Source: a virus. From it: a DNA stretch of 64,000 nt. The notes under the pieces were generated by a model. That model saw only the letters and a list, made by a program, of their open reading frames with translations, was not told the origin of the DNA and ran no database searches. The DNA is taken from the IMG/VR virus record IMGVR_UViG_3300048578_000375, one strand, 5' to 3'. Every line of letters begins with the position of its first letter. Position 1 is the stretch's first letter. Made by a program: the position numbers and the translations under genes. Of the stretch, positions 42,769 to 54,429 are shown piece by piece.

Positions 42769-43995
42769 ATGAGCCTCCTGTCATGGGCGCGCCAAAAACT
42801 CAGCCTCAAGGATCCGCGGGGCTGGCTCGGGTTCCTGGGTGATACCTGGGCCGGCAAGCCTGTCACGCCGGCGAACGCACTGCAGATTTCGGCTTGGTGG
42901 CGGTCAGTCATGCTCTACGCGGAGGTGACCGGCACGTTGCCGTTGAAGTTCTACGAGAGGCTCGATAATGACGAGCGTCGGCAGGTCAAGGATCACGCCG
43001 TCGCCGATCTCATTTCGTTCGATCCGAACGTCGATCAGACAACCCAGGAATTCTGGGGCTGTCAGGCCGCGGGGCTCTGCGTCATTGGCAATAGCTATGC
43101 CGAAAAGCGGTTCATTAGACAACGCATGGTCGCGCTGCAGCCGCTGCCGCTCGATACGCAGCCTTATCGAGATTCCAACGGCGATCTGCGTTACCGCTTC
43201 TCGGATCGCGGCAAGAGCGACGATCTTTCGGCCGACAAGGTGTTCCACACCCGCGGCTTCGGGTTTGGTGGCGACGTCGGTCTTTCGCCCCTGACGTTCG
43301 CGCGGCAATCTCTGAGCCTTTCGCTGGCGACGGAAGAGGCGGCCGGTCGCACCTTTGCGCAAGGCATGCGCGCGTCAGGCTTTTTCGTCGGGCCGAAGCT
43401 GGATAAGGTGCAGCGCGACGATTTCAAGAAGGTGTTCATCGATCCGATCATCGGCAACGATGCGTCGGCGCACTACGGCATCCTCGAGAACGGCTTCGAC
43501 TTCAAGACCATCAACATCCCGCCCAAGGATGCGGAGATGCTGCTGTCCCGGCGCTTCAACGTCGAGGAAATCTGCCGGTTCATGGGTGTGCCGCCGATCC
43601 TGGTCGGTCATGCCGGCGAAGGGCAGACGATGTGGGGGACGGGCGTCGAAAGCATCCTGCTCGCATGGCTCACGCTGCGGCTCGATGCGTTCCTGTCCAA
43701 CATCGAAAAGTCGATCAACAAGCGCCTGCTCAAGCCCGGCGAGCGCAAGAAGTTCTTCGCTGAGTTCGACCGCAATGCCTTGCTCCGCGCCGACAGCGGC
43801 GCGCGTGCGGATTTCATCTCGAAGATGATCCAGAACGCGCAGATGACGCCGAACGAAGGCAGGCGGAAGGACAACAGGCTGCCGCTGCCGGGCGGCGACG
43901 TTCTGCTCGTCAATTCCACGCTCGTCCCGCTCACGATGGCGGGGCAGAAAGCCTCAAAGATCCAGCCGGCTCCCGGCGAGCCGATACCGGAGTGA
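42769..43995 (+). CDS. Portal protein (HK97 family)
   Basis: 'PN..QT..EFW', 'GNSYA', 'GLSPL', 'EICR..GVPP...G', 'T.NE.R...N..P..GGD'. Confidence 0.95.
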   Translation: MSLLSWARQKLSLKDPRGWLGFLGDTWAGKPVTPANALQISAWWRSVMLYAEVTGTLPLKFYERLDNDERRQVKDHAVADLISFDPNVDQTTQEFWGCQAAGLCVIGNSYAEKRFIRQRMVALQPLPLDTQPYRDSNGDLRYRFSDRGKSDDLSADKVFHTRGFGFGGDVGLSPLTFARQSLSLSLATEEAAGRTFAQGMRASGFFVGPKLDKVQRDDFKKVFIDPIIGNDASAHYGILENGFDFKTINIPPKDAEMLLSRRFNVEEICRFMGVPPILVGHAGEGQTMWGTGVESILLAWLTLRLDAFLSNIEKSINKRLLKPGERKKFFAEFDRNALLRADSGARADFISKMIQNAQMTPNEGRRKDNRLPLPGGDVLLVNSTLVPLTMAGQKASKIQPAPGEPIPE

Positions 43996-44000
43996 GATGC

Positions 44001-45119
44001 ATGAAATATCTGCACATCCTGCTCGCCTGCGCCAACGAGCCGTGGCTTCTGCAGCGGGAGAAGCTCGCCGCCGTGACACAATTCCTGCTTTTCAAAGCCA
44101 AAGGCGGAAGCTTTTCGGCGCAGGAACTGGCCGCGCGCCTCGATGGACGCCGCGAACGGGCGGTGGCGCGCCGGGCCGGTGCGGTCGCAGTGATTCCGGT
44201 CCATGGCGTGATCTCGCAGCGCATGAATCTGATGGATGAAATCAGCGGCGGCACCTCTGTCGAGCAGCTCACGTCGCAGTTCCGCGAGCTCGTGGCCGAT
44301 AATGATGTCAAGGCCATCGTGATGGAGTTCGATACCCCGGGCGGCGCCGCATCCGGCGTGCCCGAACTCGCTTCCGAGATCCTGGCTTCGCGGGGCGGGA
44401 AGCCGATCATTGCGCAAATCAACAGCCTTGCCTGTTCCGCGGGATATTGGCTGGCATCGGCGGCCGATGAAATTGTGGTGTCGCCGAGCGCATCGGCCGG
44501 GGCGATCGGGGTCTACACGATCCACGAAGATATCTCCGAGACCCTGAAGAACGAGGGTATCAAGGAGACGCTGATCTATTCCGGAAAATACAAGGTCGAG
44601 GGCAACGAGTTCGAGCCGCTCTCGGACGAAGGCCGCCAGTTTTTCCAGACGCGCGTCGATGAAATCCACAGCGAGTTCATTGACGCGGTCGCTGCCGGCC
44701 GCGGTGTTTCGGCTGACGTAGTCAGCGAGGAATACGGGCAGGGCCGCTATTTCCGGGCCAGGGAGCTGATGCGCCGCGGCATGGTCGATCGCATCGGCAC
44801 GCTCGATGATACGCTGGAGCGCTTCGGCGTTCAGATGCGGCCTCAGGTTCAGCGCGAAAATGCGCGCGCGGACCGGCTCAAGATGAAGCTTTTGGCTGGG
44901 GTCCAGCCGACCACCCGTGAACTGGAGGATGGCCTGAAGGGATTTCTTGGCCTCTCCAATTCGGAAGCGGAGCGTGCCGTCAAGCTCCTCGCCAAGGGTG
45001 AACCTCACGGGGACCGTGAGCCTGGGAAGGTCCCGGAACAGACGGACCACGCCGCGGTCCAGCGGGAACTCGCCGAGATCCGGCGGACGCTCGATCGCTT
45101 CACCATCCCCAAACTCTGA
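44001..45119 (+). CDS. Prohead protease (S49/SppA family)
   Basis: 'DTPGG', 'ACSAGYWLASAAD', 'GAIGV', 'GKYK'. Confidence 0.9.
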   Translation: MKYLHILLACANEPWLLQREKLAAVTQFLLFKAKGGSFSAQELAARLDGRRERAVARRAGAVAVIPVHGVISQRMNLMDEISGGTSVEQLTSQFRELVADNDVKAIVMEFDTPGGAASGVPELASEILASRGGKPIIAQINSLACSAGYWLASAADEIVVSPSASAGAIGVYTIHEDISETLKNEGIKETLIYSGKYKVEGNEFEPLSDEGRQFFQTRVDEIHSEFIDAVAAGRGVSADVVSEEYGQGRYFRARELMRRGMVDRIGTLDDTLERFGVQMRPQVQRENARADRLKMKLLAGVQPTTRELEDGLKGFLGLSNSEAERAVKLLAKGEPHGDREPGKVPEQTDHAAVQRELAEIRRTLDRFTIPKL

Positions 45120-45131
45120 AGGAATTCTTCA

Positions 45132-46451
45132 ATGAAAAAGCTCTACATCGCGCTCGGCGCGGTGGCGGTCGTCGGCGCCATCGCGCTGCTGATCGCATTC
45201 GACGGCGGCTCGCTGCTCCATGCGACCGCCGGCCATTCCGGCTTGTTCACGGCATCGGCGGCGGCTGCCGCCGTGACGGTCGATGATCTGGCCAAGCTGA
45301 ACACCGAGCTCGGCAAGATCAGCGATCAGGTCAAGAACTTCGCCGAGGACATCAAGGCGAAGTACGACGCCGGTCAGACCGTCACGACCGAGCTGAAGGA
45401 AAAGGCCGACAAGGCGCTCTCCGAGCAGGCCGAAATGCGAGGCCGCCTCCAGGAGATCGAACAGATCGTCGCGCGCCGCGCCTCGCCTGACAAACCGGCA
45501 TCCGCCAAGACGCCGGGCGAGTTGTTCATCGAGAACGAAAAGGTCAAGGCCTTCTGCGCCGAGAAGTCGAGCCGCGGACGGGTCCGCGTCGACATGGCGA
45601 CCATCACTTCTGCCAGCAACTCCGCTGGCGCGCTGGTCGAGCCGATGCGTATTCCCGGCATCGTCTCGCTGCCCGAGCGGCGTCTGACCGTGCGCGATCT
45701 GCTCACGCCCGGCCGCACCGGTCAGAACGCTGTGCAGTTCGTCCAGGAGACGGGCTTCACCAATAATGCGCGGGTGCAGTCAGAGGGCACGCTCAAGGGC
45801 GAATCCAATATCGCCTTCGAGCTGGTGACCAAGTCGGTTTCGACCGTGGCCCATTTCCTGGTCGCATCCAAGCAGATTCTCGATGATGCGCCGATGCTGC
45901 AGTCGCACATCGATGGCCGTCTGCGCTACGGGCTGGCCTACAAGGAGGAGGATCAACTCCTCAACGGAGACGGCACTGGCGTCAATCTGCACGGCATCCT
46001 GCCGCAGGCGACGGCCTACTCGCCGGCTTTCTCGCCCGTCGGTGGCACGATGATCGATACCATGCGGCTCGCGATCCTGCAGTCGGAGCTCGCGGAGTTT
46101 CCGGCGACGGGCATCGTGCTCAATCCGATCGATTGGACCCGGATCGAGCTGACCAAGGACGAGGAGGGGCGGTACATCTTCGCCAACCCGCAGAACGTCG
46201 CCGGTCCGATGCTGTGGAGCCGGCCCGTTGTCGCCACCCAGGCGATGGATCCGGACGACTTCCTGACCGGCGCGTTCCGGCTCGGCGCCCAGGTGTTCGA
46301 TCGCGAAGATGCCAACGTCGAGATTTCGACCGAGGACAGCGACAATTTCCGCAAGAATCTCGTGACGATCCGTGCCGAGGAGCGGCTGGTGCTCGCTGTC
46401 TATCGGCCGGAAGCCTTCGTTTACGGCGATTTCGGCAATATCTCGGGCTGA
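45132..46451 (+). CDS. Major capsid protein (HK97 fold)
   Basis: N-terminal coiled-coil delta domain; 'EG.LK.ES', 'ILDDAP.L', 'GDG', 'F..N....RAEERL'. Confidence 0.95.
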   Translation: MKKLYIALGAVAVVGAIALLIAFDGGSLLHATAGHSGLFTASAAAAAVTVDDLAKLNTELGKISDQVKNFAEDIKAKYDAGQTVTTELKEKADKALSEQAEMRGRLQEIEQIVARRASPDKPASAKTPGELFIENEKVKAFCAEKSSRGRVRVDMATITSASNSAGALVEPMRIPGIVSLPERRLTVRDLLTPGRTGQNAVQFVQETGFTNNARVQSEGTLKGESNIAFELVTKSVSTVAHFLVASKQILDDAPMLQSHIDGRLRYGLAYKEEDQLLNGDGTGVNLHGILPQATAYSPAFSPVGGTMIDTMRLAILQSELAEFPATGIVLNPIDWTRIELTKDEEGRYIFANPQNVAGPMLWSRPVVATQAMDPDDFLTGAFRLGAQVFDREDANVEISTEDSDNFRKNLVTIRAEERLVLAVYRPEAFVYGDFGNISG

Positions 46452-46458
46452 CGATAAC

Positions 46459-46486
46459 GGAGGCTGGGCAAATCTGCCCAGCCTCC
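46459..46486 (+). terminator. Strong hairpin after the capsid gene
   Basis: GGAGGCTGGGCA-aatc-TGCCCAGCCTCC (12-bp stem), weak U tract. Confidence 0.5.
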
Positions 46487-46635
46487 TCCCTTTGGTCCCG
46501 GCAACGACCTCTATGAAAAGCGCAGCAACTGGCTCGATCAGCAGCTATGGCTACAAGGTCTCGAAGCGCGCACCGCCCTCAAATCAGGTCGAAAAAATTA
46601 TCACGCTGTCGGACGGCAGCCTTTGGGAGTGAACG

Positions 46636-47049
46636 ATGATTCCGATGAAGGCGCTTCGTACGTTTCGTGGCGAACATGAAGGTAAGGTGCGGCTCGGCCG
46701 CGAGTTCAGGGCGGCGACGGAGCGTCGTGCTGACGCGCTCGAGCGTGTCGGGCTTGCGATTCGACTGACGCCGCCAGTTCCCATTGCGGAGGTCGATCTG
46801 CCGGAGAACAGGGCGGCCCAACTCGGCCCTTTCGTTTCAGTTGGTGGCCTGATTGGCGGGGACAGTGCTGCGTCATCGTCGCGTCCGGCCCCAGTGCCAG
46901 CGGCACGGACGTCGGCGCCGCAAGAGGCTGGGCGCGGGTCCTCGCCATCAACGAATCCTGGCGCCTCGCGCCCTGGGCGGACGCGCTCTACGGATGCGAC
47001 GGCGCCTGGTGGCGCAAATCCGGCGCCGCGGGACAGTTCAAGGGCTTGA
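46636..47049 (+). CDS. Small post-capsid protein; -1 slippery site C-CCT-TTC at codons 64-66
   Basis: 'MKALRTFRG.EG.V..G.EF......A..LE..GLA'; low-complexity tail after the slippery site. Confidence 0.6.
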   Translation: MIPMKALRTFRGEHEGKVRLGREFRAATERRADALERVGLAIRLTPPVPIAEVDLPENRAAQLGPFVSVGGLIGGDSAASSSRPAPVPAARTSAPQEAGRGSSPSTNPGASRPGRTRSTDATAPGGANPAPRDSSRA

Positions 47050-47447
47050 AGCTCTGCCAGGATGCTGCCGTCTGTGCGGCCATCCAGCCGCTGCACAAAA
47101 TCGAGGTGAAGAGTGGCGCCGACGAATGGCTTCTCGATGAGCCGGGACGGATCGGCGATGGCGGCAACAGCGGGTTTCAGGCGATCAATCTCGCGCTGCA
47201 GTTCGGCGCCAGCAAGATCATCCTGGTCGGTTACGACATGCGGCTCGATCGCGGCGTCCACTGGCATGGCCGCCATGGTTCAGGTCTCAACAACCCGCGC
47301 GACGTGAATGTCATGAGATGGCGCCGCGCGATCGACGCGGCGGCTCCGACCGCGGCTCGCCTCGGCGTCCGCATCATCAATGCGAGCATGGAATCCGCCC
47401 TGTGCGCCTATCCCAAGATGAGCATCGAACAGGCGTTGGCGTGCTGA
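46827..47447 (+). CDS. MptE/DUF115-like (glycosyltransferase-related) domain with no in-frame start of its own
   Basis: 'CVIVASGPS...VLAIN...D.LY.CD..WW...GGNSGFQAINLA...GA.KI.L.GYD'; the frame is open back past 46827 with no start codon seen before the domain. Confidence 0.7.
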   Translation, partial: PFRFSWWPDWRGQCCVIVASGPSASGTDVGAARGWARVLAINESWRLAPWADALYGCDGAWWRKSGAAGQFKGLKLCQDAAVCAAIQPLHKIEVKSGADEWLLDEPGRIGDGGNSGFQAINLALQFGASKIILVGYDMRLDRGVHWHGRHGSGLNNPRDVNVMRWRRAIDAAAPTAARLGVRIINASMESALCAYPKMSIEQALAC

Positions 47448-48004
47448 CGGTGACGCAGGTGCCGGACACCATCCCGGTCGCACTCGATCTCGCCAAAAAG
47501 CATCTTCGCCTCGATAGCGATGACGAGAACGATCAGCTCGAGATCTATCTTCGGGCTGCGATCGATTATGTGCAGAGCGCGACCACGCGCATCCTGGCTC
47601 CAACGGAGTTTGATTATCGCGTCCATCTGCATGGACGAAGGATCGATCTGCCGCGCTCCCCGGTGCGCGAGGTGATCGAGGTTTCGGCGATCGAGGACGG
47701 CGTGGCAACCCCGATGGCCCTGAGCGACTGGCGCCATGTCCCGGCGTCTTCCGGCGGGCGCGTAGAACTATCGTCATTTCATGATGGCACGATCGGTGTG
47801 GTATTCACGGCCGGCTATGACCTGCCCGGGCAAACCGGATCCGGTGATGATCCGGCGTTCCGCCGGCCCGATCTGGCGGTCGCTGTCGTGCTCCTGTTGA
47901 CCGGCCATTGGTTCGAGCATCGCGAAGCGGTATCGGACGTCCAGACCTATCCGCTGCCCTTCGCTGTCGACGCGATTCTCCAGCAATTGCGGATCTATCG
48001 TTGA
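47441..48004 (+). CDS. Head-tail connector (gp6-like)
   Basis: 'V.LDLAKKHLRLD.DDE......I.AA', 'LLL.GHWFEHRE', 'P..V..IL...R'. Confidence 0.88.
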   Translation: MLTVTQVPDTIPVALDLAKKHLRLDSDDENDQLEIYLRAAIDYVQSATTRILAPTEFDYRVHLHGRRIDLPRSPVREVIEVSAIEDGVATPMALSDWRHVPASSGGRVELSSFHDGTIGVVFTAGYDLPGQTGSGDDPAFRRPDLAVAVVLLLTGHWFEHREAVSDVQTYPLPFAVDAILQQLRIYR

Positions 48005-48397: not shown

Positions 48398-49354
48398 ATG
48401 CCCCCTCTTCTCATCCGTGGCATGCACGGCCTCGGCGACAATATCAGGCAGCGGGCGATCGTCCGCCAGCTCATGCGCGAGCGTGACGTCTGGATCGAGA
48501 GCTCCTGGGTATCCGTCTATCACGACCTGATCGTGGATGGACTGAAGGTTCTGCACAAGCAGACCCGGCTGCGGACGCAGGCGAAGAATGCGGCGCGCGA
48601 GCGGGCATTGTTCTGCGGCTCGCGCCCGCCGGCCGGCGCCAGGCTGCTCAGGATCGACTATCCGCCGGCGGAGGTGCGTCGTCATGGATCCGTGATGGCG
48701 GCCATGTGCGCGGCGGCCGGAACCGATGCGGCGACGGCTGACTTCCGGCTTCCGGTGCCGCCGCATTGGCGAGCGAAAGCCTCGGCGTGGCTCGATCGCT
48801 GGAATCCGGACCGGCCTTTGATGCTGTACCGTCCGCTGGTGGATCGTCCGGCTGATTGGGGCGGCTGCAATGCGCGCAACCCGGATCATGCCGCCTATGC
48901 TGCGCTGTTCAGGTCGATCCGTGACCGCTTCTTCGTCGTCTCGATCGCCGATCTTATCCCCGGCAAGGAATGGATCGTCGGCGAGCGCATTGAGGCGGAC
49001 GCGAAATGCCACGCCGGCGAGCTCGAATTCGAAACACTCGCCGCGCTCACGGCGATGTCGGCGCTGGTTTATTGCTCGCCGGGTTTCGCCGGCGTGCTGG
49101 CCCAGGCGGTCGGGACGCCGGTCGCAATGATCTTCGGCGGCTATGAGCGGTCGGCGTTCTTCTTCGCGGGCGCGAAAGATGCGCCCGTCCTCGGCATCGA
49201 TCCCGTCAACCCCTGTGAATGTTTCAGCCATCATCATGCTTGCAGAAAAGCGATCGACGTTGCCAGTGCCAGCGTCCGCCTCGATCTATTCGCCGCCGCG
49301 GCGGCCGAGCGTCACGATCACTCCGCCCAACGCGGACTTGTCGGGGCTGCATAG
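48398..49354 (+). CDS. GT-B glycosyltransferase (GT9/heptosyltransferase-like)
   Basis: 'GLGDNI', 'L..L.A...L......G...LAQAVGTP...IFG'. Confidence 0.75.
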   Translation: MPPLLIRGMHGLGDNIRQRAIVRQLMRERDVWIESSWVSVYHDLIVDGLKVLHKQTRLRTQAKNAARERALFCGSRPPAGARLLRIDYPPAEVRRHGSVMAAMCAAAGTDAATADFRLPVPPHWRAKASAWLDRWNPDRPLMLYRPLVDRPADWGGCNARNPDHAAYAALFRSIRDRFFVVSIADLIPGKEWIVGERIEADAKCHAGELEFETLAALTAMSALVYCSPGFAGVLAQAVGTPVAMIFGGYERSAFFFAGAKDAPVLGIDPVNPCECFSHHHACRKAIDVASASVRLDLFAAAAAERHDHSAQRGLVGAA

Positions 49355-49874
49355 CCGCTACGTCAATCCCGGCGAGCTCGACGTCCTGATTCACCTGATC
49401 GCGGGCGTCGGTGCGCGAACGGTGCTCGAGATCGGCGCCAATACCGGCCGCACGGCCAAGGCGATCCTGCGGAACATCCCCGGTATCGAGCGCTATTTCG
49501 CGGTCGACGTGCCCGCGGACTACCGCACGCCAATGACCGTACAGCGCAAGGAAGTGCAGTCAAATCCTGGTGCGCTCGCCATGGATGATCCGCGCTTTCG
49601 CCTCATCATCTGCGGACGCGGCTCGTTCGACCTGATGCCGGGCGACCTGCCCAAGATGGATGCCGTCTTCATCGACGGTGGTCACGAGGCGGCCGCTGTG
49701 CGCCATGACTACGCGCTGGCCCGGGCGCTGCTCAACCCGGGCGGAATCGTGATCTTCCACGACGATCATGGCCGTGACGTGGTCGACGTCAGTGTCGTGC
49801 TGGATGACCTGCATGACGAGGGATCGCAGATCGTGCATGTCACCGGCACCTGGCTGGCTTTCGAGAGGACATGA
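49236..49874 (+). CDS. Class I SAM methyltransferase (Methyltransf_24-like)
   Basis: 'VLEIG...G.T', 'D.VFIDG.H....V..D......L.PGG.V.FHD'; start uncertain. Confidence 0.8.
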   Translation: MLAEKRSTLPVPASASIYSPPRRPSVTITPPNADLSGLHSRYVNPGELDVLIHLIAGVGARTVLEIGANTGRTAKAILRNIPGIERYFAVDVPADYRTPMTVQRKEVQSNPGALAMDDPRFRLIICGRGSFDLMPGDLPKMDAVFIDGGHEAAAVRHDYALARALLNPGGIVIFHDDHGRDVVDVSVVLDDLHDEGSQIVHVTGTWLAFERT

Positions 49875-51265: not shown

Positions 51266-51700
51266 ATGAGCCAACAGAATGCCCGCGAGCTCGTCATCAA
51301 GCGCGGCAACGGGATGAGCCCGGAAACCTTCACCTTCGTGTGCGGCATCCGCACACGCACGTTCCAGATGTCGAACGCGCAGATCGACACGACCGTGCCG
51401 AGCTGCGAAAATCCGGCCAATCCCATCGTCGCGACGGCGCGGCCCGGCCGGCAGACCATCACGTTCTCCGGCGACGGCCTGTTCGACAGCGATGTTGTCG
51501 GCAAGGCCGTCGCTGACGACGCCCGGACGCAGGCGATCGATGTCAACTATCAGGTCATCGTGCCCGGCTACGGAACATTCGAAGGTCCATTCTTCGTGTC
51601 TGATTTCCAGTTGAATGGTGACATGGAAGATCCGCTGGCCTTCTCGGCAACCTGGGTGCCGCTGTCCGGTGACGCGCTCGAATTCACGCCGGCCGCCTGA
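51266..51700 (+). CDS. Major tail (tube) protein
   Basis: 'G.R.R......ID.T', 'TFSGDG.F', 'GTFEG.F.V'. Confidence 0.85.
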   Translation: MSQQNARELVIKRGNGMSPETFTFVCGIRTRTFQMSNAQIDTTVPSCENPANPIVATARPGRQTITFSGDGLFDSDVVGKAVADDARTQAIDVNYQVIVPGYGTFEGPFFVSDFQLNGDMEDPLAFSATWVPLSGDALEFTPAA

Positions 51701-52038
51701 TGCCGGTCGCATGCAATGCGGAGCGGGGCGAGGTCCCGCTCACGGTCGGCGGCATCGAGCTCGTGATCGCCGCCGAGATGAGTAGGCTGGCCGCCCTGTC
51801 GAGCCGGCTCGGCTGCCAGTCGTTCATGGAGCTCTACCTGAAGCTCGCCGGCGTCGAGCTGGCCGCAAGCCTGGCGGCGGTCGAACTGCTCGCGGTGAAG
51901 GGCGACGGCGCCAAGGCGGTGGCCGCCATGACGATCGCCGATCTGCCGGCCTGCAAGGACGCCTTCATGGCGGCGCTGCTGCATCATGCGGGCAAGCAGC
52001 GGGGAAACGGGGAAACCGCCAGGGAAGTGACGACATAG
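51700..52038 (+). CDS. Tail assembly chaperone (G); -1 frameshift site G-GGA-AAC at 52002-52008
   Basis: 'N..RGEV.L.VGG'; XXXYYYZ heptamer near the 3' end. Confidence 0.8.
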   Translation: MPVACNAERGEVPLTVGGIELVIAAEMSRLAALSSRLGCQSFMELYLKLAGVELAASLAAVELLAVKGDGAKAVAAMTIADLPACKDAFMAALLHHAGKQRGNGETAREVTT

Positions 52039-52229
52039 TCATTCCCTGGCGGGATTGGCTCGGTGCCGCGGTGGTGCGCCTCGGCTGGAAGCCGGGAGAT
52101 TTCTGGTCGGCCACACTGACAGAGTTCTTCGTCGCGCTCGACTTCTGGGCGGAGGTCAATGGCTTGAAGAGGCGCATCGACGCTCCGACGCGCGAGCGGC
52201 TTGAGGAGTTGAAACGGAAATATGGCTGA
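52002..52229 (+). CDS. Tail assembly chaperone frameshift extension (GT)
   Basis: The -1 frame reads 'LGWKPGDFWSATLTEF...RLEELKRKYG*' and ends overlapping the TMP start. Confidence 0.8.
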   Translation, partial: GKRGNRQGSDDIVIPWRDWLGAAVVRLGWKPGDFWSATLTEFFVALDFWAEVNGLKRRIDAPTRERLEELKRKYG

Positions 52230-54429
52230 TCTTGAACAGTTGGTGCTCTCGATCTCGGCGGACACGCGCCAGATGCAGCGCGCGCTGCAGCGCCTGGTCG
52301 GGGATACCCAGCAGGCTGCCGACAGCGTCGACAAGGCCTTCAGTGCTGCCCCGCCGAAGATCGATAATGTCGCGAAATCGCTTGGCAAAACGCAGGCAGC
52401 GACAGCAAACCTTGCCGCACAGTTTCAGGATATCGCCGTGCAGCTCCAGGGCGGCTCCTCGCCGCTGACGGTTGCGCTACAGCAGGGAACCCAGATCAGT
52501 CAGGTTATCGGTCAGCAGGGGGCGACGGGTGCAGTCAGCCTGCTGGGCTCGGCATTTGCATCGCTCCTCAGCCCGGTATCATTGGCCACCGTCGGCGTCA
52601 TCGCCCTGGGCGGTGCGGCCGTACAGTACGGCCTCAAGGCGCTCGGTGCCGTCAACAATCTCGACGAGGAGATCAAGAAGCATGAAGAACTGCTGAAGTC
52701 GTTGAAGGACGCTTGGGGTGATGTCGGCAAAGGCGTCCAAATCTCCGCCAAGGAGAGTTCCGATGTCTTGAAGGCGTTGCTCAATATCTCGACGGACAAG
52801 CTGCAGAAGGACTTCGATCGGCTAGCCAAATCCGCCGCATCGCCAGGCCAGCAGATGGCTCAGTTCGTCGATGAATTCGGGCGCGTTATCGATACCGGAG
52901 CCGACAAGTTCGCGCCGTTTCGCAAGGCAATCGACGATTTCAACGGATCGGTGCGGGCAGGCAAACCCGACGTCGCCGCATTTCGGCAGGCGATATCCGA
53001 GATCATCAACAATAGCGCAGACCAGAGTGTTCGTGCGCTTGGCGGTGAGCTGCTCGAGGCCAGCAAGAATGCCGGTGAGCTGGCCAACAATCTGCGCGCC
53101 ACGGCTGATGCGGGCAAGCAATTGTCCGTCGCCGCGCTCGCCGCGGCCGCGATCAACAAGAGCTTTGGCGATGCCATCGACAAGCTGAAGAGCACGGTGA
53201 CGCCAAATCTTGATGATCGCGAAAAGATCATGAAGAACTATACCGACGCGATGAAATCGGCGAACAGCGATGACAAGCAGCTCGCCGCGATGGCCGAGCG
53301 CGATAACCAGCTCGCCATTCTGTCCGCCAACGAACGGAAGAAGGCGGCGGAGGAAGCTGCCGGCGCTGCGGAAGCCGCACAAAAGCGTTTCGATGCCGCG
53401 CTAAATTCCACGTCGCGGCGGACGGCGAGTGTTCAGGGCGAGATCGAAGCGATCGGAAAGGGCGCCGGAGAACTCGCAAGGCTTGAGACTCAATATCGTC
53501 TGACCGAACAGGCGCAACAGTCGTTCGGGAAGGTGACACCGGAGGTTGCAGCAGGTATCGGCAAGGTCGCGTCTGCCGCCGGCATTGCCGCCGATGCGCT
53601 GTCGAAAGCCAAGGTGGCTTCACAAATCGACTTCGGAAACAAGACGGCGTTCCTGTCCGATCAGGATGTCAAGATCGCGCAGCAGCTCGCCTCGATCTAC
53701 GGCAACGATGTCGCGTCCGCGCTGAACTCGAGCTACGCCGCCGCGATCACGCTGAACGATGCCTTGCGCGGCACGTCGGCGGCGCTGTCGAACGACCTCA
53801 CCAGTGGCCTGACGGACATCGTGTCCGGCTCCAAGTCCGCCAAGGACGGGGTCAAGGACATGGCAGCCTCGATCATCCGCGACATGGAGCAGATCATCAT
53901 CAAGCTGACCGTGGTCGGACCGCTGATGCGGGCTTTGCAGACCGGCTTCAATTCGCTGGGCATTGGAAATCTGCTCGGCGGCGGGACGTCCTCGGCCGTC
54001 GGCAATCCGACGGTCATTGGCAGCCTCTTTGCCGAAGGCGGCTATACAGGCCGGGGCGGCAAGTATCAGGCGGCGGGGCTTGTCCACAAGGGAGAGGTGG
54101 TGTGGTCGCAGCGCGACGTGGCCCGCGCCGGCGGCGTCGGCGCCGTCGAGGGCATGCGGCTGCGCGGCTATGCCGACGGTGGCGTGGTGGCGCCCTCGTT
54201 TCCATCGGTGCCGCGCGGGCCGGGAGCACCGACCAACAACATCTACATCCAGGGCGCGCCATCGCAGCCGTCCGTTTCCACCAAGCCGAATGCGACCGGC
54301 GGGCAGGACATCTCGGTCGTCTTCCGCGATGCGGTGCGCACTGTGGTCAACGGCGATCTGTCCAGCGGAACCGGGCTGGCGCAGAGCCTGAAGCAGTTTT
54401 CGAGCGCCGGCGCGTTCCGGGGAGCGTAG
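52222..54429 (+). CDS. Tape measure protein
   Basis: Lambda-family N-terminus 'QFQDIAVQL.GG.SP....QQG.QI'; 735 aa, Ala-rich helical; C-terminal 'FAEGGYTG...AG.VHKGE.V'. Confidence 0.92.
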   Translation: MADLEQLVLSISADTRQMQRALQRLVGDTQQAADSVDKAFSAAPPKIDNVAKSLGKTQAATANLAAQFQDIAVQLQGGSSPLTVALQQGTQISQVIGQQGATGAVSLLGSAFASLLSPVSLATVGVIALGGAAVQYGLKALGAVNNLDEEIKKHEELLKSLKDAWGDVGKGVQISAKESSDVLKALLNISTDKLQKDFDRLAKSAASPGQQMAQFVDEFGRVIDTGADKFAPFRKAIDDFNGSVRAGKPDVAAFRQAISEIINNSADQSVRALGGELLEASKNAGELANNLRATADAGKQLSVAALAAAAINKSFGDAIDKLKSTVTPNLDDREKIMKNYTDAMKSANSDDKQLAAMAERDNQLAILSANERKKAAEEAAGAAEAAQKRFDAALNSTSRRTASVQGEIEAIGKGAGELARLETQYRLTEQAQQSFGKVTPEVAAGIGKVASAAGIAADALSKAKVASQIDFGNKTAFLSDQDVKIAQQLASIYGNDVASALNSSYAAAITLNDALRGTSAALSNDLTSGLTDIVSGSKSAKDGVKDMAASIIRDMEQIIIKLTVVGPLMRALQTGFNSLGIGNLLGGGTSSAVGNPTVIGSLFAEGGYTGRGGKYQAAGLVHKGEVVWSQRDVARAGGVGAVEGMRLRGYADGGVVAPSFPSVPRGPGAPTNNIYIQGAPSQPSVSTKPNATGGQDISVVFRDAVRTVVNGDLSSGTGLAQSLKQFSSAGAFRGA

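Follow-up and report, generated by a model that had tools for sequence, protein, structure and literature searches.

Programmed frameshifts in tailed phages are known mainly from the tail assembly chaperone gene, together with a few capsid extensions. The chaperone case, a -1 frameshift between G and GT in lambda and most long-tailed phages, is said to have been described by Xu, Hendrix and Duda in 2004. Reviewed examples include this G/GT shift, the frameshifted C-terminal extensions of phage head proteins (gene 10A/10B of T7 and T3, the major head protein of Lactobacillus phage A2, the Listeria phages PSA, A118 and A500, and Ig-like additions) and the -1 frameshift of retroviral and totiviral Gag-Pol (PMC5009743). 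Here, we analysed a 64,000-nucleotide (nt) stretch of viral DNA (IMG/VR record IMGVR_UViG_3300048578_000375; hereafter the window), which comes from a temperate tailed phage. In its head module, a small open reading frame (ORF) after the major capsid gene is overlapped in the -1 frame by the coding sequence of a predicted sugar-transferase-like enzyme, and a programmed -1 ribosomal frameshift at the heptamer C CCT TTC (46827-46833) probably fuses the N-terminal domain (N-domain) of the former to the latter. The comparative case for this is strong, comprising the frame relation of the two parts, the lack of a start codon, the slippery motif with its register, and the conservation of all these across deep divergence.

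The locus resembles G/GT in having a conserved -1 slip on an X XXY YYZ motif within a module of virion genes, a short and a long predicted product with a shared N-terminus, and a position and register that are kept while the sequence diverges. However, other gene families are involved, the site lies in the head module, and the added part is a complete enzyme domain rather than a chaperone extension; some relatives also have an in-frame fusion in place of the site, or a stand-alone enzyme. As in the T7/T3 10A/10B group, recoding of a head gene would add a domain to a fraction of a head-associated protein, but in that group a major capsid protein gains a structural or Ig-like domain, whereas at this locus the catalytic domain would be gained by a small accessory protein whose gene follows that of the capsid. 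With Gag-Pol, the locus shares the joining of a capsid-associating N-terminal part to an enzyme by a -1 slip, by which a set fraction would be sent to the particle. Gag-Pol differs in belonging to eukaryotic RNA viruses, in its strong pseudoknot or hairpin stimulator, and in its enzyme, a polymerase or protease; for Gag-Pol, targeting to the capsid is established, and for the present locus it is proposed.

A first-pass annotation, made by a model from the letters of the window alone, had pointed out that the enzyme domain lacks a start codon of its own and that C CCT TTC is an X XXY YYZ heptamer in the register of the upstream ORF. Both observations are correct: the first ATG, GTG or TTG in the enzyme frame is a TTG at 47046, well within the conserved enzyme domain, and CCT and TTC are 0-frame codons (Table 1). 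The annotation had also placed the opening of the -1 frame exactly at the heptamer. This does not apply to the window, where the frame is already open 93 nt upstream, and an exact coincidence is found in phage S20. The 0-frame after the heptamer (VSVGGLIGGDSAASSSRPAPVPAAR...) is indeed of low complexity, and reads across the start of the enzyme gene. A computed tandem -1 slip at the heptamer yields a predicted product of 270 amino acids (aa) with the junction ...AAQLGPF/RFSWWPDWRG..., the same length and junction as first suggested. The predicted tryptic peptides at the junction are AAQLGPFR for the trans-frame product and AAQLGPFVSVGGLIGGDSAASSSR for the 0-frame product.

We propose that ribosomes would start at the ATG at 46636 and translate the small post-capsid ORF. 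At C CCU UUC, a fraction of them would slip back by one base, the peptidyl-tRNA-Pro moving from CCU to CCC and the aminoacyl-tRNA-Phe from UUC to UUU. Slipped ribosomes would then read the -1 frame to 47447 and make the 270-aa protein, consisting of a gpFI-like domain of about 50 aa, a flexible linker and an enzyme with a sialyltransferase/Maf/MptE fold, while those that do not slip would make a 137-aa N-domain protein with a disordered tail. How efficiently ribosomes slip would presumably determine how much N-domain protein stays free relative to the tethered enzyme, the fusion being the presumed minor product, as the first-pass annotation had it.

A search with the enzyme frame gave 774 homologues, most of them 200-230 aa long with an ATG a few codons before a WxPDW motif. 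We compared the window with 150 related loci, of which genomes supplied 70 and viral contigs 80 (151 loci with the window), and searched the three forward frames 5' of each enzyme with a profile of the N-domain. The enzyme was in the -1 frame relative to the N-domain in 52 of 54 profile matches, the window included. Other offsets were a weak +1 match in L058 and an offset of zero in L028 and L048, the latter weak and far upstream. We rejected L028, a Hyphomonas contig from a metagenome-assembled genome (MAG), as an in-frame fusion; it has a masked run of Ns inside the enzyme gene and a tail of the -1 type, which place it with the -1 loci. Such masked runs call for caution when frames are counted automatically in collections of this kind. 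With L028, the -1 offset holds in all 53 loci, whose proteins are 30-60% identical and which derive from isolates, MAGs and viral contigs alike, and the weaker N-domain matches in loci without a start codon are all at the -1 offset too.

Start codons and heptamers were counted in the 45 distinct sequences among the -1 loci. In 38 of these, the enzyme frame has no ATG, GTG or TTG from the upstream stop to a point ten codons beyond WxPDW, while the other seven have some start codon far 5' in the -1 frame. Homologues with their own start, by contrast, lack the N-domain and show a clear ATG at 4-8 codons 5' of WxPDW. The two groups also differ in their gene neighbourhoods: the N-domain ORF lies directly 3' of a capsid-gene homologue in 36 of 39 -1 loci, and the enzyme does so in none of 67 own-start loci. 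In-frame fusions of both domains make up six of the top 120 enzyme homologues (P0007, P0009, P0012, P0016, P0040 and P0109), and L161 is a true in-frame fusion directly 3' of a capsid gene, with a linker lacking CCCT. The first-pass annotation had listed relatives with a single in-frame gene, or with an independent start, as cases that would speak against a frameshift. Both kinds of relative exist, but neither has that force; true in-frame fusions such as L161 lack the motif and indicate that the fused protein is a product kept by selection, and the own-start enzymes lack the N-domain and never directly follow the capsid gene. On a tree of the enzyme, the -1 state is scattered, with at least seven changes forced by well-supported branches, and hence appears to be old and maintained over long divergence, with repeated switches between forms.

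The slip site itself is conserved in a register-specific manner. In the permitted zone, which runs from the opening of the -1 frame to WxPDW, X XXY YYZ heptamers occur 36 times in the correct register vs 0 and 3 times in the other two, and 29 of the 45 loci have at least one in register. These include CCCTTT[C/G/A/T] (16 occurrences), at the same place as in the window, AAACCCT (6) and GGGCCC[T/G] (6). Their common core, C CCT, occurs 40 times in register (in 40 of the 45 loci) vs 3 and 1 times out of it; CCT is a rare codon in the same genes (9.8% of proline codons), and is preceded by C in a fifth of cases. The conservation of overlap and heptamer, which the first-pass annotation had suggested checking, is thus seen in both the frame and the register counts.

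Some relatives narrow the position of the slip further. In phage S20 ('Tetraselmis viridis virus'), the -1 frame reads TGA TGA TGA TGA CCC TTT GGG, and since it opens immediately before CCC TTT, the heptamer is the only place where the frames can be joined. In four others (L148, L124, L092 and L023), the -1 frame opens 7 to 10 codons 5' of the WxPDW motif. Pseudomonas phages D3 (orf6.5/orf7) and PMG1 (PMG1_0007/0008) have the same two-ORF layout with C CCA AAG, where the predicted junction follows ...VESEIPK, and Psp6 (L157:1208-2064) has a -1 two-ORF layout without C CCT, its candidate sites being T TTT TTG and an A_AAG tetramer further 5' in the overlap. The Pro-Phe encoded by CCC TTT in the -1 frame is missing from the six in-frame fusions named above, from L161 and from the own-start enzymes; the motif is therefore conserved as nucleotides and not as protein. 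In E. coli, C_CC.A_AA.G is the most efficient motif and C_CC.U_UU.C a high-level frameshifter, and the C_CC.U tetramer is weakly shift-prone (PMC4066793).

Several observations weigh against a programmed frameshift at this site. A canonical heptamer is missing in 16 of the 45 loci, 11 of which have the C CCT tetramer only and five not even that, and the motif efficiencies, having been measured in E. coli, may not hold for alphaproteobacterial hosts. Stimulatory elements were taken here as a downstream structure 4-10 nt after the motif or a Shine-Dalgarno (SD)-like sequence 6-17 nt 5' of it. In the window, the folded downstream region shows nothing that would convincingly act as a stimulatory RNA structure (z = +0.26); the mean over 40 loci is weak (z -0.83), and own-start loci fold equally well at the corresponding position (p = 0.50). 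SD-like motifs do peak upstream, with their ends 19-24 nt 5' of C CCT (42 in that 6-nt bin vs 3-15 in other upstream bins, in 40 anchored loci), but this is outside the spacing that works in E. coli, where 6-17 nt has been tested (PMC4066793). Finally, searching viral and metagenome contigs for exact 26-nt matches around the site revealed no further copy of the window locus, and hence allowed no comparison of independent assemblies. The two SD-like sequences between the N-domain and the slip site of the window (Table 1) are possible stimulators. A recurring UGGUGG/GUCAUCGUC pairing was rejected as a stimulator, as it is accounted for by the W-W and V-I-V codons.

The enzyme frame of the window encodes a domain of 200 aa that matches phrog_4603 over nearly its full length (E 4.9e-48, profile positions 1-174 of 178), and all 32 of the 32 invariant columns of the family are intact; the invariant motifs of the family are SGPS, GGNSGF, GYD, HWHGxH and NP. 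The first-pass annotation had described the domain as MptE/DUF115-like. The match to phrog_4603 is firm, but against Pfam PF01973 (MptE-like, formerly DUF115) the window enzyme scores 19.4 bits, below the gathering cut-off of 34.6, and so falls outside the family by Pfam's own rule. A precomputed PF01973 match is present on several homologues. In an AlphaFold2 model of the in-frame homologue P0109 (predicted local distance difference test, pLDDT, 94.2), a linker of low confidence connects a structured N-domain with the enzyme domain. Searched with Foldseek, this model, which represents a homologue about 50% identical to the window protein and not that protein itself, matched the sialyltransferase CstII (1RO7, E 8e-4, template modelling (TM) score 0.49), Maf (5MU5, E 1.2e-3, TM 0.56) and MptE HPPK (8SD5, E 1.3e-2). 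A search of PDB sequences with the enzyme profile returned nothing significant. We thus predict a sialyltransferase/Maf/MptE-like fold for the enzyme domain, which it would have in common with Cst-II (GT42), Maf and MptE (PF01973); it differs from these solved enzymes in that identity is only 9-12%, with a TM score of about 0.5, and the phage members are without an assigned substrate or activity.

In RefSeq, phrog_4603 is the label on P1 pmgO and PMG1_0008, and D3 orf7 matches by tblastn. The window enzyme is therefore of the same family as P1 PmgO and D3 Orf7 and, like them, travels with transferase-like and methyltransferase genes. Unlike the window enzyme, PmgO has its own ATG and no N-domain. 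P1 was considered as a further carrier of the frameshift (L153:2832-3591) and rejected, as PmgO has its own start and the overlapping pmgN is in the +1 frame, with no similarity to the N-domain. Separately, PAJU2 ORF010 (L155:1486-2055) is an own-start homologue of the enzyme that follows a head-tail adaptor gene; it is labelled 'structural protein', which would favour association with the particle if the label derives from virion proteomics.

The N-domain belongs to a large family. At E <= 0.001 the family has at least 1000 cluster representatives, and 28 of 36 members match phrog_2616. Almost all of the best 150 representatives are 49-175 aa long, and at least 60 of these 150 carry the tail GGxxG...SSS, produced when the enzyme's WWPDWRG...VIVAS codons are read in the 0-frame. 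Many N-domain proteins occur on their own, with no enzyme (representatives of 49-75 aa). P0248 is an in-frame fusion of the N-domain with a glycosyltransferase (Pfam GT2, E 3e-16), and a second, unrelated sugar-transferase family is therefore joined to the same module. A side observation concerns P0122, which is 1976 aa long and matches the N-domain profile partially in ten places, besides some odd Pfam fragments. A tblastn search of the phage collection with the N-domain gave no match because single sequences cannot bridge the divergence within the family, for which a profile is needed.

Modelled alone with AlphaFold2 (pLDDT 88.8), the N-domain resembles the C-terminal domain of lambda gpFI. 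VIA-align superposes it on 2LSM, the gpFI C-domain, with a Z of 5.5 (rmsd, root-mean-square deviation, 1.0 A over 42 of 50 residues, 24% identity), where a Z below 8 can reflect a common arrangement. Matches were also found to bL9 N-domains, to GINS B-domains and to the B. subtilis prophage protein YqbF (2HJQ), those to bL9 and the GINS B-domain scoring as high as gpFI. By hhalign, the N-domain aligns with lambda FI residues 105-130 in the expected register with a probability of 27%, and a motif V-x-G-x-x-F...A...GLA is common to both; a profile search of PDB sequences with the N-domain found nothing significant, 2LSM included. The order of genes in lambda is E-FI-FII, with FI in the same slot as the N-domain ORF of the window, directly 3' of the major capsid gene. 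The likeness to gpFI thus takes in a possible common fold of a domain of about 45 residues, and a gene placed between that for the major capsid protein, which it directly follows, and those for head-tail joining. It does not extend further, as the domain is C-terminal in gpFI and N-terminal here, the sequences have no significant relation, and gpFI is neither recoded nor joined to an enzyme. In work by Popovic et al. from 2012, the C-terminal domain of gpFI reportedly binds the major head protein gpE. In lambda, gpFI bridges the capsid and the terminase-DNA complex (PMC13595911). The fold, the gene position and the fusion partners suggest that the N-domain binds the head or prohead, tethering the enzyme to it, and this idea of a capsid tether gains support because the N-domain is gpFI-like both in fold and in gene position. 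Against it, the suggested link to gpFI depends on the fold match of a small domain (Z 5.5) and the 27% hhalign probability.

It is possible, though doubtful, that the recoded gene supplies a fixed ratio of an FI-like packaging or head-binding protein and the same binder carrying a nonulosonic-acid-type sugar transferase, and that this, with the neighbouring genes, allows many temperate proteobacterial phages, the D3 group among them, to glycosylate their capsids as these are assembled. A functional precedent exists in mycobacteriophage Che8 and other cluster F1 phages, whose glycosyltransferases modify their own capsid proteins (Freeman et al. 2023, as cited in PMC11256854). As presented in that secondary account, these phages differ in using other enzyme families, in being actinobacteriophages, in having the genes outside the head module and in showing no recoding, and glycosylation is demonstrated for them and suggested here.

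A real frameshift may also have a regulatory or stoichiometric role only, for example with the 0-frame FI-like protein as the working product and the enzyme fusion as a by-product, or with the N-domain as a cofactor or oligomerisation module of the enzyme instead of a head binder. The numerous stand-alone N-domain proteins fit this, as does the match of the N-domain fold to the non-capsid proteins bL9 and GINS. However, purifying selection acts on the enzyme, which can be expressed in no other way, the in-frame fusions and the N-domain-GT2 fusion argue that the N-domain serves enzymes, and the strict placement after the capsid gene, in the lambda FI slot, argues for a head-related role. We consider a purely regulatory role rather unlikely.

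It is improbable that the two frames are independent overlapping genes, with enzyme translation starting at TTG 47046 or from some non-canonical -1-frame codon. Annotation does treat them so: the public gene call for the window is the 133-aa TTG product (P0001), a separate GTG or later start is annotated for the enzyme in D3-like records, and seven of the 45 loci have the distant start codons noted above. Yet a start at 47046 would remove the invariant SGPS loop and about 70 conserved residues, and most of the distinct loci offer no start codon at all. In S20, the frame opens only six codons before the WW motif, and none of these is a start or near-cognate start codon. Where the enzyme does start independently, it has its clear ATG and no N-domain, and with an independent start both the exclusive -1 relation and the in-register heptamer would be left unexplained.

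A broken gene or an assembly error, in which one base was lost or gained in a single in-frame fusion gene, is very improbable. In-frame fusions of the same two domains do exist (P0012/L161, P0109 and others). However, random indels would give both signs and no conserved slippery motif, whereas the offset is the same in 53 of 53 loci, none being in frame and one match a weak +1, and the window enzyme keeps all its invariant residues. An indel artefact or a pseudogene cannot account for the recurrence of the same pattern across isolates, MAGs and viral contigs at 30-60% identity. Equally hard to credit is transcriptional slippage, with RNA polymerase slipping on CCCTTT to give mRNAs one base longer or shorter. 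Transcriptional realignment does make fusions in some insertion sequence elements and dnaX genes (PMC5009743), but known polymerase slippage needs long homopolymers, usually at least seven As or Ts against runs of 3+3 here. What is conserved is the register of the motif relative to the codons (X XXY YYZ), a property relevant to ribosomes and not to polymerase.

We found no description of this frameshift site in the literature searched (recoding and DUF115 papers, including the 2016 recoding review, GeneTack and PRFect) or in the GenBank and RefSeq records examined. Judged from the comparison of sequences, it is apparently a conserved and undescribed programmed -1 frameshift with an unusual payload. 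It would be a second, widespread class of programmed frameshift in tailed phages, this time in the head module, and to our knowledge the first phage case of a slip that adds a complete enzyme to what is probably a head-binding module. In existing records the gene is split or truncated (D3 orf6.5/orf7, PMG1_0007/0008 and S20 TVGG_00050/00049), and the true form of the enzyme is therefore missing from databases. As D3-type Pseudomonas phages can be cultivated, both the frameshift and the suspected capsid modification are directly testable. If these phages do glycosylate their capsids in this way, they would offer a parallel to Gag-Pol targeting, with a means of modifying the virion that is not yet described in Gram-negative phages.

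Table 1. Features of the proposed frameshift locus and of its flanking head genes in the window.
Feature	Position	Strand	Remarks
S49 prohead protease gene	43992-45119		head module
HK97-type major capsid gene	45132-46451		Pfam Phage_capsid E 2e-56
SD-like GGGAG	46625-46629	+	6 nt 5' of the ATG of the small ORF; read from the sequence
0-frame ORF, 137 aa, phrog_2616 family	46636-47049	+	ATG 46636, stop 47047-47049; N-domain, linker and low-complexity tail
N-domain, ~50 aa (four strands, helix, strand); putative head-binding module	46636-46785	+	L9-N / lambda gpFI C-terminal-domain-like fold
-1 frame, open stop to stop, 237 codons	46734-47447	+	follows TGA 46731-46733; stop 47445-47447
Second SD-like GGAGG, candidate stimulator	46788-46792	+	5' of slip site
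SD-like GGAG, candidate stimulator	46803-46806	+	21-24 nt 5' of slip site
Slippery heptamer C CCT TTC (X XXY YYZ), proposed -1 slip site	46827-46833	+	CCT, TTC = 0-frame codons 65, 66
Post-slip part of -1 frame, 204 codons + stop	46833-47447	+	predicted CstII/Maf/MptE-fold enzyme domain, phrog_4603
gp6-like head-tail connector gene	47450-48004		directly 3' of the proposed recoded locus

The surroundings of the locus (Table 1) are those of a head module. Further downstream, among the head-tail joining genes (48398-49874), the window encodes a 318-aa phrog_6804 protein with no Pfam match and an overlapping 243-aa Methyltransf_24 protein. PMG1 and PAJU2 have a two-gene pair in the same order 3' of the enzyme gene, and S20 has additional transferase-like genes at this position. 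The phrog_6804 and Methyltransf_24 genes probably form one functional cassette with the recoded enzyme, and the three products together may modify a virion component.

The capsid gene and the ATG of the small ORF are separated by a 185-nt spacer. Just 3' of the capsid stop, this spacer contains a hairpin (46460-46487) with a perfect 12-bp stem (GGAGGCTGGGCA / TGCCCAGCCTCC), the loop AATC and a weak T tail. It was not called by the terminator scan, and the PMG1 record has a terminator annotated at the equivalent position. The hairpin and the PMG1 annotation suggest attenuation between the capsid gene and the recoded gene.

The window also has a frameshift site of the familiar kind, which the first-pass annotation had rightly presented as a parallel in the tail chaperone gene. 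There, a G-like ORF (51700-52038) contains G GGA AAC at 52002-52008, the -1 frame continues to about 52220, and the 735-aa tape measure gene (52222-54429) follows directly.

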